Shown: positions 32,627 through 38,129 of the stretch, piece after piece
Position numbering within the stretch: position 1 is the first letter of the stretch
Layout of the letters: each line of letters begins with the position of its first letter
Source of the DNA: a virus
IMG/VR virus record: IMGVR_UViG_3300032291_001290
Location: 1 to 64,000 of that record
Length of the DNA stretch: 64,000 nt
Strand: one strand, 5' to 3'
Notes under the pieces: model-generated
What the model was told of the DNA's origin: nothing
Database searches by the model: none
What the model saw: the letters and a program-made list of their open reading frames with translations, nothing else
Position numbers and translations under genes: made by a program

Positions 32627-32975
32627 TCTTTGTGAGGTGCGACAAATAAAAGATAGATATTCAGTTACCTGGAATAAGCACATTACTGGATTAAGTGTTT
32701 TTAGTGAGAAGGCTATAATTTTACTTGACATGATTATCAGAGATAGTAAATCTTGGGAAATAGGTATTCATTTGAGTAATGGTTATGTCTTGTGGATGAG
32801 TTGCACATTATTAAACACAATGGATACTGGACTATTAGCTGAGTATCTACAACATGCAGGCAATATAAAACATCCCGATGAAATTATAGGTGCAGTGTTT
32901 GACAACATGGATGATGTTGAAATCTTCACTAAACGATTAGAACAAAAATATATATGGCATGTGTTGAAACAATGA
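32607..32975 (+). CDS. hypothetical protein (divergent array member?)
   Basis: AVFDNMDDVEIF near the C-terminus. Confidence 0.55.
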   Translation: MNSGNVNLCEVRQIKDRYSVTWNKHITGLSVFSEKAIILLDMIIRDSKSWEIGIHLSNGYVLWMSCTLLNTMDTGLLAEYLQHAGNIKHPDEIIGAVFDNMDDVEIFTKRLEQKYIWHVLKQ

Positions 32976-33361
32976 ATAGTAAAAGATGTAATCGTTGTAA
33001 AGAAATAAAACTATTATCAGACTTTGGTAATGATAGTGGTGGTAAAAAACTACGGTCTGATTGTAGAGCATGTGACAGTATACTGGCTAAAGAACGTAGT
33101 GAAATAAAAAAAACTGCACCGTCAATACCTAACAATCATGTTTGTCCCATTTGTGAACAAACAGAAGAACAATTGAATGAAAACATTAATCCAACACTAC
33201 GCAAAAAAGGAAGACCATGGGTGATGGATCACAATCACGAACTAAAAACATTTCGCGGATGGTTATGTAGAAAGTGCAATTTGGGATGTGGTAATTTTAA
33301 AGACAATCCCGAACTATTAGACAAAGCGGCAACATATTTAAGGAATACACAAAATGGCTGA
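32954..33361 (+). CDS. endonuclease VII-like (His-Me finger) nuclease
   Basis: CPIC...MDHNH...RGWLCRKCNLGCG.FKD; N-terminal CxxC...CxxC. Confidence 0.88.
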   Translation: MACVETMNSKRCNRCKEIKLLSDFGNDSGGKKLRSDCRACDSILAKERSEIKKTAPSIPNNHVCPICEQTEEQLNENINPTLRKKGRPWVMDHNHELKTFRGWLCRKCNLGCGNFKDNPELLDKAATYLRNTQNG

Positions 33362-33902
33362 TATAATGATTGACATTGAGAGTTTGAATACAACACCTGA
33401 TTGTGTTATCTTAACTATTGGTGCAGTATTATTCGATCCAAAAGGTAATGGTATCTTGGATAAGATTGAATTACGCCCTACAATTGAGGATCAAACAGAA
33501 ACATATAATCGTACTATTAATGAAGATACACTGCGTTGGTGGGGTACACAAAGTGAGGCGGCACAAGAAGAAGCACTAGGTGATCGTGATAGAATGTCAT
33601 TCAAAGAGTGTATGGAGAAGTTATACAAGTTCTGTTGGAATCAAGGTAAACCATGGAGTCATGGTGCGCCGTTTGACATTGTTGTTATGGAACATGCTTG
33701 GAGACAACATAGTCAACTAGCACCCTGGCCCTATTATAATGTTAGAGACACACGTACATTGTTTGATATTGCAGGTGTTAGTCTTAAAGACGGTGGCCAT
33801 GTCACTAGTCACAAAGCAGTAGAAGATGCAGAACGACAGGCTATTGTTGTGCAACAAGCATATATGAAATTAATGAAAGCAGGATTGGTAACACCACGAT
33901 GA
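33354..33902 (+). CDS. DEDDh 3'-5' exonuclease (RNase AS/DexA-like)
   Basis: MIDIESL, HGAPFD, RDTRT, H.A.ED motifs. Confidence 0.85.
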   Translation: MADIMIDIESLNTTPDCVILTIGAVLFDPKGNGILDKIELRPTIEDQTETYNRTINEDTLRWWGTQSEAAQEEALGDRDRMSFKECMEKLYKFCWNQGKPWSHGAPFDIVVMEHAWRQHSQLAPWPYYNVRDTRTLFDIAGVSLKDGGHVTSHKAVEDAERQAIVVQQAYMKLMKAGLVTPR

Positions 33903-34510
33903 GAATCGATTCAGACATTGACATTGACTTTGGTAGTCGAGACCATTTATTGAAACTTATCAAGCACACACGTGCGGCTATGCGTAACGTTAAGCCTATA
34001 CGTAATCATGCAACTGGTATATATGTTACAGATATACCCTATGATCCAGTCAATGATATTGCAAGTATTGATTATACCGAAGCAGAAAAACGTGGATATT
34101 TTAAATTAGATTTGTTGAATGTACACGTATACGAAAAAGTACGTGATGAAATTCATTTAATAGAATTAATGCGTGATCCTGATTGGTCTAAGTTAACAGA
34201 CAGTAAATTTGTTGAACAATTGATTCACTTAAATAATCAGTTTTATAATCTACAAAAGATGCCAGAACCAGTAGATAGTATTCCAAGACTTGCTATGTTC
34301 TTAGCAGTAATTCGTCCGGGTAAGAAACATTTAATTGGAAAAATTTGGAGTGAAGTAGCAAAAACTGTATGGGATAAAGGAACAGATGGATATGTGTTTA
34401 AAAAAGCACATGCAATTGCTTATGCTAATCTAGTTGTAGTTCATATGAACTTATTGAGGGAGTCTCTTGACCAGAGTAATACTACGGCGTTTGGACCTGC
34501 GTTTACTTAA
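33899..34510 (+). CDS. miniature DNA polymerase III alpha (DnaE)-like catalytic core
   Basis: DIDIDF, HATG, FKLDLL, IRPG, GYVFKKAHAIAY in 203 aa. Confidence 0.8.
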   Translation: MRIDSDIDIDFGSRDHLLKLIKHTRAAMRNVKPIRNHATGIYVTDIPYDPVNDIASIDYTEAEKRGYFKLDLLNVHVYEKVRDEIHLIELMRDPDWSKLTDSKFVEQLIHLNNQFYNLQKMPEPVDSIPRLAMFLAVIRPGKKHLIGKIWSEVAKTVWDKGTDGYVFKKAHAIAYANLVVVHMNLLRESLDQSNTTAFGPAFT

Positions 34511-34834
34511 CTCGGCCATGCTACATACAGGGCCATGCACGACTACTAGGCTCTTGTTGTTAAAGGTTCGAATGTAGGGCTTAAAAATAGCCCAGTCTTC
34601 CTTTAAAAATAAATTTATAGGAATAAGTCGATTGCTTTCCCACCACCAAACTTCTCCCAATTCTAAAAATTTCTCTTTAGTATCAGGGTCAATTATTGAT
34701 CCATAGTCATATATTGTAGTGACCATTTCGTCACGATTTTGTACTATCCCAACATAATCTTGGTTGGCATATGAACATACTGTTATGAACGGGTGATTTT
34801 CGCTTAAGCGTTTAAAAAATTCGTTGTGAATCAT
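34451..34834 (-). CDS. hypothetical protein
   Basis: WWWESNRLIPI motif; TAAATA upstream on the minus strand; 60-nt convergent overlap. Confidence 0.7.
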   Translation of the reverse strand: MIHNEFFKRLSENHPFITVCSYANQDYVGIVQNRDEMVTTIYDYGSIIDPDTKEKFLELGEVWWWESNRLIPINLFLKEDWAIFKPYIRTFNNKSLVVVHGPVCSMAELSKRRSKRRSITLVKRLPQ

Positions 34835-34926
34835 TGTAATTTCAATAGATTTATTTAGTATTGGGTGAACCAAAGTTAATAAAAGAAAATCCCGTAGACT
34901 AAATATAGTATTAGGAGCCTACATTT

Positions 34927-35737: not shown

Positions 35738-36709
35738 ATGTTTGATATACTATCAATACTTCCGGGTAAAAAGAAACTAACAAGTTCAGGTTGGACTAGC
35801 TTTAACGCAGTTTGTTGCAACCACTTTGGTCATAAACCTGATCGTAGAATGCGTGGCGGAGTAAAACTTGACGGTCATAATTGGTCCATGCATTGTTTTA
35901 ATTGTGGGTTCAAATGCAATTTTGTATTGGGTAGAAGCATCACATCAAAAACACGTAATCTATTAAGTTGGTGCGGAGTTGATAATGAACAAATTCAACG
36001 GTGGAGTTTAGAAAGTTTACAACACAAAGACTTATTAGATTTCACACAAGTTAAAAAAGAACGTGTAAAAATAAAGTTTAATGACCATGTATTACCTGAA
36101 GGTGAGATTGTTGATAGTAACAATCCAGCGCACAAGTTATATGTAGATTATTTAGAAAAACGAAAGATAGATACAAACGACTATCCGTTTTTAATTACTC
36201 CTAATGAATTTGGTAGAATGTCAAACAGAGTTATCATACCCTACACATACAAAAATAAAATAGTTGGACATACAAGTAGATTCTTAGATAACAAAATACC
36301 AAAATATATCAATGAACAACAACCAGGATATGTTTTTAATTTAGATGCACAGAAACCTGAATGGATTGTTTGTATCTTAACTGAAGGTATATTTGATGCA
36401 CTAAGTATCGATGGCGTAGCAGTCATGCATGATGAAATTAGTAATGATCAAGCACAACTACTAAGCACATTAAACAAACAAATTATTGTTGTACCAGATC
36501 GTGATAAGACTGGGTTAAAAATGTGTGATAGGGCATTAGAATTGGGATATCAAGTTAGTCTACCTGAATGGGATACTGACATAAAAGATGTGAATGATGC
36601 AGTAGTTAAATATGGCAAATTGCCTACCCTACTAAGTATACTTCATAGTGCAACAAATAGTAAAATTAAAATAGAAATGCAGAGGAAAAAAATTGTTAAA
36701 GGATTATAA
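35738..36709 (+). CDS. DNA primase (T4 gp61-like)
   Basis: Zn ribbon (CC...HCFNCG); TOPRIM EGIFDA, PDRD, KDVND. Confidence 0.88.
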   Translation: MFDILSILPGKKKLTSSGWTSFNAVCCNHFGHKPDRRMRGGVKLDGHNWSMHCFNCGFKCNFVLGRSITSKTRNLLSWCGVDNEQIQRWSLESLQHKDLLDFTQVKKERVKIKFNDHVLPEGEIVDSNNPAHKLYVDYLEKRKIDTNDYPFLITPNEFGRMSNRVIIPYTYKNKIVGHTSRFLDNKIPKYINEQQPGYVFNLDAQKPEWIVCILTEGIFDALSIDGVAVMHDEISNDQAQLLSTLNKQIIVVPDRDKTGLKMCDRALELGYQVSLPEWDTDIKDVNDAVVKYGKLPTLLSILHSATNSKIKIEMQRKKIVKGL

Positions 36710-38129
36710 TACTGAGGTTCAAAAACTCTTTTTGCGTATGATGATTACAAACGCAGAATTATATACACGGGTAATGAACATAATGAATCCGGAAAACTTT
36801 GACAAGTCACTAAGACCTGTAGCAGAGTTTATGAAGGAGTATAGTGAAAAATATAGTTTGTTACCCGACTGTACACAAATCAATGCAACTACAGGCATTC
36901 AGCTTGATGCCATTGAAGATTTTGGTGACAAACACACTGAATGGTTTCTCGCTGAGTTTGAATCATTTACAAAACGACAAGAACTAGAACGAGCGATTCT
37001 TAAATCAGCCGATATGCTAGAGAAGGGTGACTTTGGTCCTGTTGAAAAACTAATCAAAGATGCAGTACAGATTAGCTTACAACGAGACATGGGTACTGAT
37101 TACTTTGCTGATCCTAAAGCACGTATTAACAAGTATTTCAATTCAGGTGGACAAGTAAGTACAGGTTGGCCGCAACTTGATAAATTATTATATGGTGGAT
37201 TCAGTCGTGGTGAATTGAATATCTTTGCTGGTGGTAGTGGTTCAGGTAAATCATTAGTTATGATGAACATTGCATTGAATTGGTTACAACAGGGACTCAG
37301 TGGTGTTTATATCAGTTTAGAATTGAGTGAAGAATTAACTTCATTGAGAACTGATGCCATGTTGACCATGATGAGTACTAGAGATATTCGTAAAGATATT
37401 GACAATACTGAACTTAAAGTAAAGATGGCAGGTAAAAAATCAGGACAGTATCGTGTTAAGGGTTTGCCTGCACAAAGTAATGTCAATGATATTAGGTCAT
37501 ACTTAAAAGAAGTGCAGATTCAAACTGGTATCAAAGTTGACTTTGTAATGATTGATTATCTTGATTTGGTTATGCCAGTTAGTGTCAAGGTAAATCCTAA
37601 CGATCAGTTTATCAAAGACAAATACGTAAGTGAAGAATTACGTAACTTAGCAAAAGAATTAGGTATTCTTATGGTTACTGCAAGTCAATTAAATCGTAGT
37701 GCAGTTGAAGAAATTGAATTTGATCATAGTCACATTGCAGGTGGTATCAGTAAGATTAACACAGCGGATAATGTGTTCGGTATCTTTACAAGTCGTAGTA
37801 TGCGTGAACGTGGTCAATATCAAATTCAATGTATGAAAAGTCGTAGTTCTACTGGAGTAGGACAAAAGATTGATTTGGAATATAACATTGAAACTATGCG
37901 AATAACAGATACTGATCCAGATGGATATGCCGAACAACAATCAAAATTCAGACCTAGTCCTAGTCCAAATGATATTATGACTAGATTAAAACCACAGTCT
38001 ACATTGGCATCTTCTGATACTATTATTAATCAAGCTACAGGGGAAATATTAGAACCTGATAATAAACGCACATTAGCAGATGTTCAGGGATCAAAACTTA
38101 AAACATTATTAAATTCATTAAAAAAGTAG
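36693..38129 (+). CDS. replicative DnaB-like helicase (T4 gp41-like)
   Basis: GGSGSGKS, SLE, IDYLD, TASQLNR, KSR motifs. Confidence 0.93.
   Translation: MLKDYNTEVQKLFLRMMITNAELYTRVMNIMNPENFDKSLRPVAEFMKEYSEKYSLLPDCTQINATTGIQLDAIEDFGDKHTEWFLAEFESFTKRQELERAILKSADMLEKGDFGPVEKLIKDAVQISLQRDMGTDYFADPKARINKYFNSGGQVSTGWPQLDKLLYGGFSRGELNIFAGGSGSGKSLVMMNIALNWLQQGLSGVYISLELSEELTSLRTDAMLTMMSTRDIRKDIDNTELKVKMAGKKSGQYRVKGLPAQSNVNDIRSYLKEVQIQTGIKVDFVMIDYLDLVMPVSVKVNPNDQFIKDKYVSEELRNLAKELGILMVTASQLNRSAVEEIEFDHSHIAGGISKINTADNVFGIFTSRSMRERGQYQIQCMKSRSSTGVGQKIDLEYNIETMRITDTDPDGYAEQQSKFRPSPSPNDIMTRLKPQSTLASSDTIINQATGEILEPDNKRTLADVQGSKLKTLLNSLKK

Follow-up and report, generated by a model that had tools for sequence, protein, structure and literature searches.

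The 203-aa open reading frame (ORF) at 33899..34510 of the window, i.e. of the whole stretch of 64,000 nt that was analysed, is the metal-binding half of a two-piece, stripped-down DNA polymerase III (Pol III) alpha. This enzyme has already been published and is therefore not new. A split minimal Pol III alpha was described in the group 2.2 jumbo phages by Iyer, Anantharaman, Krishnan, Burroughs and Aravind (2021, Viruses 13:63; PMC7824862), who reported that these phages also encode a family B polymerase (PolB), suggested a role in one-strand synthesis or in repair, and proposed the enzyme as a model for the ancestral form of the bacterial replicase. In addition, one or both pieces already bear the label 'DNA polymerase (III alpha)' in many GenBank records, and a literature search found no biochemical study or follow-up paper on the split enzyme. 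No smaller relative of the bacterial replicase is known, and the enzyme is abundant, amounting to thousands of metagenomic sequence clusters.

We consider it highly probable that the 203-aa protein (the C-piece) and a 169-aa protein encoded elsewhere in the same phage record (the N-piece) are the subunits of such a split minimal Pol III alpha and share one nucleotidyltransferase site, the activity itself being a prediction. What would otherwise pass for a '203-aa polymerase' is thus only half an active site. The window holds no new class but offers three handles on the system: a clade with an overlapping proofreading-type exonuclease, natural single-chain fusions, which should express more easily, and a map of which residues lie on which chain.

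The C-piece is homologous to the DnaE palm and fingers

A sequence-only reading of the window had pointed to five motifs occurring in the DnaE order within 203 aa, and all five were found in that order.

33899..34510, plus strand: C-piece, C-terminal subunit of the split minimal Pol III alpha, 203 aa (assigned by phrog_11778, PDB profile, AlphaFold2 model, VIA-align and dN/dS)
33914..33931, plus strand: DIDIDF motif, aa 6-11; D8 and D10 correspond to D401 and D403 of E. coli alpha, and D6, D8 and D10 are invariant in 78 homologs
aa 37-40 of the 203-aa protein: HATG motif
34103..34117, plus strand: KLDLL motif, aa 69-73; K69 and D71, both invariant, correspond to K553 and D555 of E. coli alpha; aligned to KFDFLGL of 5fku/2hnh
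34310..34321, plus strand: IRPG motif, aa 138-141; corresponds to FRPG of E. coli alpha (end at residue 641), with R139 and P140 invariant
34388..34423, plus strand: finger motif GYVFKKAHAIAY, aa 164-175; corresponds to GYGFNKSHSAAYA within the E. coli 740-769 stretch

The C-piece was not recognised in a Pfam search, and phmmer, run against the PDB with the 203-aa sequence alone, returned only noise, so that a profile was required. Among the PHROGs, phrog_11778 ('DNA polymerase') matched the protein over its full length (E 6.9e-56), and long DnaE-type PHROGs gave weak extra matches at its last motif. A profile was then built from 78 diverse homologs sharing 29-57% identity (alignment A1), and its search of the PDB retrieved only Pol III alpha chains, namely those of E. 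coli, Thermus and Mycobacterium, with a best E of 1.6e-5. The alignment was colinear, leading from KFDFLGL to FRPG (E. coli 539-641) and then to GYGFNKSHSAAYA (740-769), the latter stretch being aligned to residues 152-180 of the C-piece. The DIDIDF region was aligned to E. coli 400-418, which contains PDFDVDF, in an HMM stretch below threshold. Across the 78 homologs D6, D8, D10, K69, D71, R139 and P140 were invariant, and H37, G40, K168 and H171 were conserved in at least 90%. The equivalents of all three catalytic Asp residues (D8, D10 and D71) are therefore kept, just as the sequence-only reading had maintained.

The AlphaFold2 model of the 203-aa protein, computed from A1, had a pLDDT of 94.9. 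In a Foldseek search of this model against the PDB the first 15 matches were all DnaE or PolC, and VIA-align gave Z scores of 6.2-9.5 to 15 DnaE/PolC chains over 187-200 of the 203 residues. Comparison of a predicted structure with the DnaE palm had been proposed as a check on the motifs, and at Z above 6 it returned nothing but C-family polymerases, the next fold after them reaching Z 3.6. Together, these findings confirmed that the 203-aa protein is homologous to the palm and fingers of DnaE and that the resemblance is more than chance. The C-piece begins five residues before DIDIDF and has nothing beyond the finger motif, and its 203 residues span E. coli alpha from 397 to about 830 with large gaps. 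The earlier view that the protein arose by internal reductions, not by simple truncation, was thereby upheld.

The nucleotide-binding loop lies on a separate, distant gene

In its headline, the sequence-only reading had taken the 203-aa protein for a stand-alone polymerase core. This part fell, since the nucleotide-binding GS loop is missing from the protein. Its other suggestion, that the protein could be one piece of a multi-subunit split replicase, proved the better one, as the GS loop was found on a separate 169-aa protein 41.5 kb away.

75441-75950 of the same 101-kb record, 41.5 kb downstream and outside the window: N-piece, 169-aa ORF, matching PF07733 (DNA_pol3_alpha) with E 2.4e-9

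When the whole record was searched with PF07733, a single match was obtained (75708-75950), which lies within this ORF. The ORF ends with ...GVGRGSSVASF...DEFLK, and GVGRGSS, the G-S nucleotide-binding loop of the Pol-beta-like fold, is invariant in 41 N-piece homologs. A profile of the N-piece aligned to E. coli alpha 320-392 and ended at ERFL, the homolog of DEFLK. Since the N-piece ends at E. coli residue 392 and the C-piece resumes at about 397, the break falls between the NTP-binding loop and the strand with the first two catalytic Asp residues.

The window comprises the initial 64 kb of an IMG/VR record of 101,416 bp; the completeness of this record is estimated at 29%, which implies a phage genome of roughly 350 kb. 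A search of the rest of the genome for PolB and for other DnaE fragments, as the sequence-only reading had advised, was successful with respect to the second DnaE fragment, the 169-aa ORF; PolB was not found in the present 101-kb record, which is itself only about 29% complete. PolB (PF00136) was present in 5/5 relatives tested. The PHP domain (PF02811) and the finger domain (PF17657) were absent from the present record, an 86%-complete close relative, PA5oct, Atu_ph07 and 121Q, each of which had exactly one PF07733 match.

Matches to the N-piece were obtained in 105 phage records and matches to the C-piece in 96; both lists were dominated by the same groups of phages. The distance between the two pieces ranged from 5 to 182 kb (PA5oct, 121Q, RaK2, Atu_ph07, XacN1 and RsoM2USA), the pieces being only about 5 kb apart in RsoM2USA. 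In this phage, a nucleotidyltransferase of the RlaP type (RNA repair pathway, Pol-beta family) is encoded two genes downstream of the C-piece (gp208; L091 7307-8320). The surroundings of the N-piece in the present record (G000:C1:74804-76689; L001 597-2482) comprise a 197-aa unknown protein upstream and, downstream, a lysine-rich 119-aa protein and a Cpn10/GroES-like 123-aa protein (Pfam E 8.2e-5).

A C-piece match was also obtained in Alishewanella phage Slickus01 (L092, 141.6 kb) and an N-piece match in its sister Slicko01 (OQ508956, 141.4 kb), one piece being shown per record. As these phages of about 141 kb are well under the 200-kb 'jumbo' limit and have the same gene block by gene order (see below), the system is not limited to jumbo genomes.

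Natural fusions join the two pieces in DnaE order

In three metagenomic clusters of 375-376 aa (P0171, P0271 and P0272), the N- and C-pieces are joined in the DnaE order, and the Pfam match of the fused proteins crosses the N/C junction. Such fusions are rare, being limited to these three 90% clusters, which derive from short contigs. In alignments A2, A4 and A6, MAFFT placed the half-length pieces wrongly relative to the fused protein, and in A3 it misaligned the first residues. Only A5, a hand-checked alignment in which the Asp pair was inspected by eye, was folded, and the fused model was built on it.

The AlphaFold2 model of the fused protein had a pLDDT of 86.9, with values >90 for most of residues 80-375. 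Against 16 C-family entries it gave Z scores of 12.2-21.9 over 315-351 residues, and the next folds, namely the CCA-adding enzyme, MenT, Cid1 and Pol beta-type transferases, reached Z <=3.7, the CCA-adding enzyme coming first with Z 3.7. A Pol III alpha palm that is complete but stripped down, and whose fingers are reduced, would be expected to give just this pattern. Contact between the separate N- and C-pieces is suggested by their homology and by the fused forms.

The C-piece is part of a recurrent replication block

The C-piece gene is followed by a convergent small gene and, further downstream, by two replication genes.

34451..34873, minus strand: convergent small gene of unknown function, phrog_11637 (E 2.6e-31); its 3' end overlaps the C-piece by 60 nt
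35738..36709, plus strand: DnaG-type primase (Toprim_2, DNAG_N; phrog_47, E 1.5e-32), syntenic in all relatives
36693..38129, plus strand: DnaB/gp41-like replicative helicase (DnaB_C, E 8.5e-22; phrog_19, E 2e-73)

Together with a virion protein, these genes form a block that recurs across lineages in the order C-piece, convergent small gene, virion protein, primase and DnaB-like helicase. All five genes were matched in Atu_ph07 and in the IMG/VR relatives. For PA5oct and 121Q, only annotation and position identified the virion protein, and in Slickus01 the block was recognised by gene order and annotation.

The phrog_11637 protein measures about 110-170 aa and has a WWW-ES-N-R-x-I-P core and a basic, K/R-rich C-terminal tail. 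Its gene is syntenic in PA5oct, Atu_ph07, 121Q and all IMG/VR relatives, and was assigned by position in Slickus01, XacN1 and RAS14, with one extra gene in between in the latter two. No PDB profile match and no Atlas match were obtained for the protein. The Atlas version of it starts at residue 13 (ATG), which makes the TTG start doubtful.

An exonuclease gene is kept upstream of the C-piece in close relatives

The two genes upstream of the C-piece both encode putative nucleases.

32954..33361, plus strand: Endonuclease VII-like gene (Pfam Endonuclease_7, E 3.7e-13; phrog_2633), upstream of the exonuclease
33354..33902, plus strand: DEDDh 3'-5' exonuclease (Rv2179c-like), 182 aa (Pfam PF16473, E 5.6e-33; phrog_255 'exonuclease', 1.4e-38)

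The exonuclease carries the DEDDh residues in DIE (aa 7-9), PFD (aa 106-108) and the H-x4-D element HKAVED (aa 153-158). The junction with the C-piece reads ...CCACGATGAGA..., in which the ATG of the C-piece overlaps the TGA of the exonuclease as ATGA. Both the overlap and the nature of the upstream 3'-5' exonuclease, as seen in its DEDDh pattern and PF16473 match, were as the sequence-only reading had described them.

That reading had further paired the exonuclease with the polymerase core. To judge this, 80 IMG/VR relatives with 77-99% identity were available, 66 of them with enough upstream DNA. The exonuclease was located upstream of the C-piece in 66/66 of these informative relatives, directly in 55 and after an insertion of 186-385 nt in 11. 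The pairing thus holds here and throughout the 66 informative close relatives, but not across the family as a whole. No recognisable exonuclease was found within about 3 kb upstream of the C-piece in PA5oct, Atu_ph07, 121Q, Slickus01 and RsoM2USA, and on the basis of these five distant phages we rejected the exonuclease as a family-wide partner of the C-piece. The exonuclease family occurs in 616 phage records; among the matches listed, the best came from phages of 35-69 kb.

In the present record, L005 and L084, the Endonuclease VII-like gene precedes the exonuclease. A homolog lies between the exonuclease and the C-piece in L045 and L047 (3642-3992), and the gene is absent in most relatives. 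This distribution fits the behaviour that a mobile, homing-type endonuclease would display.

On the strand of the C-piece and about 2.3 kb downstream of it, a DnaQ/RNase_T-type gene was observed in XacN1 (ORF223; L090 5865-6458) and RAS14 (L093 5904-6506). Both are Xanthomonadaceae jumbo phages, and this is a second, independent and loose linkage of a DEDDh nuclease to the C-piece. It hints that a polymerase-exonuclease partnership recurs.

We found no mention of an exonuclease linked to the split Pol III alpha in Iyer et al. (2021; PMC7824862). The conservation of the exonuclease just upstream in all informative close relatives is a modest addition. As judged from gene order, the pairing is a clade-level feature compatible with a trans proofreader. 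Conceivably, the N-piece, the C-piece and the exonuclease of the freshwater clade form a proofreading polymerase made up of three proteins and totalling about 550 aa; this remains a tentative idea that we hold to be rather less than probable. If true, such an assembly would amount to a minimal counterpart of the alpha-epsilon core, functional in the absence of a PHP domain.

Proposed mechanism and alternative explanations

In the mechanism that we propose, the 203-aa protein is one of the two chains of the 'minimal DNA polymerase III alpha' of T4-like (group 2.2) large phages, namely its C-terminal subunit. It contributes the metal-binding Asp triad (D8, D10 and D71) and the reduced DnaE finger elements (RPG and GYxFKKxHAxAY), and its predicted role is in Mg2+- and template-binding. 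The 169-aa protein, whose gene lies outside the window (75441-75950 of the record), brings the invariant GVGRGSS nucleotide-binding loop. Non-covalent association of both proteins would then be required to form a single Pol-beta-like nucleotidyltransferase active site, in an enzyme that lacks the PHP, thumb, beta-clamp-binding, HhH and OB parts. The two-piece enzyme would probably serve as an auxiliary DNA polymerase beside PolB, in repair, gap filling or a specialised replication step, and in the freshwater clade the overlapping DEDDh exonuclease may serve as its trans proofreader. The substrate is presumed to be DNA because the DnaE-specific finger motifs are conserved and the gene resides in a replication module.

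Processive DNA synthesis needs the thumb and clamp-binding parts, both of which are missing here. For this reason a non-replicative transferase role of the two-piece enzyme keeps some plausibility. The N- and C-pieces together could constitute a nucleotidyltransferase that does not copy DNA, such as an enzyme for 3'-tailing of RNA or DNA, or a nucleotide-signal synthase acting in host conflict. Apart from the loss of the thumb, clamp-binding and OB parts, such a role would be in line with the CCA-adding, MenT and Cid1-type transferases being the next neighbours of the fused model after the C-family, with the neighbouring exonuclease belonging to a family named as exoribonuclease, and with the fact that PolB is already present in these phages. 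However, the DnaE-specific finger motifs are under strong constraint, the conserved block with primase and helicase was present in every lineage examined, and the fused model scored Z 12-22 to C-family polymerases as opposed to <=3.7 to other transferases. We therefore regard a non-copying transferase as unlikely.

Less likely still is a self-sufficient minimal C-family polymerase of 203 aa that needs no partner, or none but the exonuclease. The protein does have all three catalytic Asp and a number of finger motifs, and its predicted fold is compact and confident, yet the GS nucleotide-binding loop is missing from it and is invariant on a separate, co-occurring protein. Moreover, the part with the GS loop was always included in the fused forms.

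An intein-split DnaE whose halves are joined by protein trans-splicing, as in cyanobacteria, would account for a break inside the palm, and DnaE is the classic host of split inteins. Against this stands that the N-piece stops right after ...DEFLK and that the C-piece starts five residues before DIDIDF. Both ORF ends thus abut homologous DnaE residues and leave no room for an intein half at either end, which renders this explanation scarcely credible.

Selection on the C-piece was assessed in a family of >7,900 clusters at 90% identity (376 clusters at 50% identity), the full-length members of which measure about 185-215 aa. The median dN/dS of the C-piece was about 0.09 (76 pairs with ungapped relatives), as compared to 0.07 for the neighbouring primase. 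The C-piece is under purifying selection. A decaying fragment of a captured bacterial dnaE, as might be supposed from a length of about one fifth of DnaE and from a gene in pieces, can be dismissed for practical purposes, since the length is stable over thousands of clusters, the catalytic residues are invariant and the dN/dS of 0.09 is close to that of the adjoining primase (0.07). Neither of the signs of decay named by the sequence-only reading, variable lengths and loss of the Asp residues, was encountered.

Comparison with known systems

The two-piece enzyme, which we favour over these alternatives, agrees with the published split minimal Pol III alpha of the group 2.2 jumbo phages in that the same NTP-binding N-piece and Mg/DNA-binding C-piece are encoded by distant genes, the other Pol III domains are equally absent, and PolB co-occurs in relatives. 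Homologs are present in the same phages (PA5oct, Atu_ph07, RaK2/121Q and XacN1). It differs in that the present member belongs to an uncultured freshwater-type clade (IMG/VR), in which a DEDDh exonuclease is always located upstream and often overlaps the C-piece start. In addition, the family extends to a 141-kb phage and to rare single-chain fusions.

With DnaE and PolC (2hnh, 2hpi, 5lew and 3f2b) the phage enzyme has in common the Pol-beta-like palm with its GS loop, Asp triad and K-x-D strand, the RPG and GYxFxKSHxxAYA finger motifs, and the order of all these elements. Whereas DnaE and PolC exceed 1000 aa in one chain, the phage enzyme has about 370 aa in two chains and is devoid of the N-terminal PHP domain, the thumb, most of the fingers, the beta-clamp-binding/HhH region and the OB fold. 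Furthermore, a single chain bears both the GS loop and the Asp triad in canonical C-family polymerases, while the GS loop here resides on the other protein.

In Pol III alpha-epsilon (DnaE-DnaQ), too, a C-family catalytic unit is accompanied by a DEDDh 3'-5' exonuclease encoded by a gene of its own. There, epsilon attaches to alpha through the PHP domain of the latter; in contrast, the PHP domain is absent here and the linkage is limited to one clade. The exonuclease also differs from epsilon in being of the Rv2179c-like branch, which is common among phages of 35-69 kb without an annotated polymerase III-like gene at the match. Finally, the intein-split DnaE of cyanobacteria is likewise encoded as two distant dnaE genes, but the phage system has no intein halves, is split at another point, and yields a minimal rather than a full-length product.
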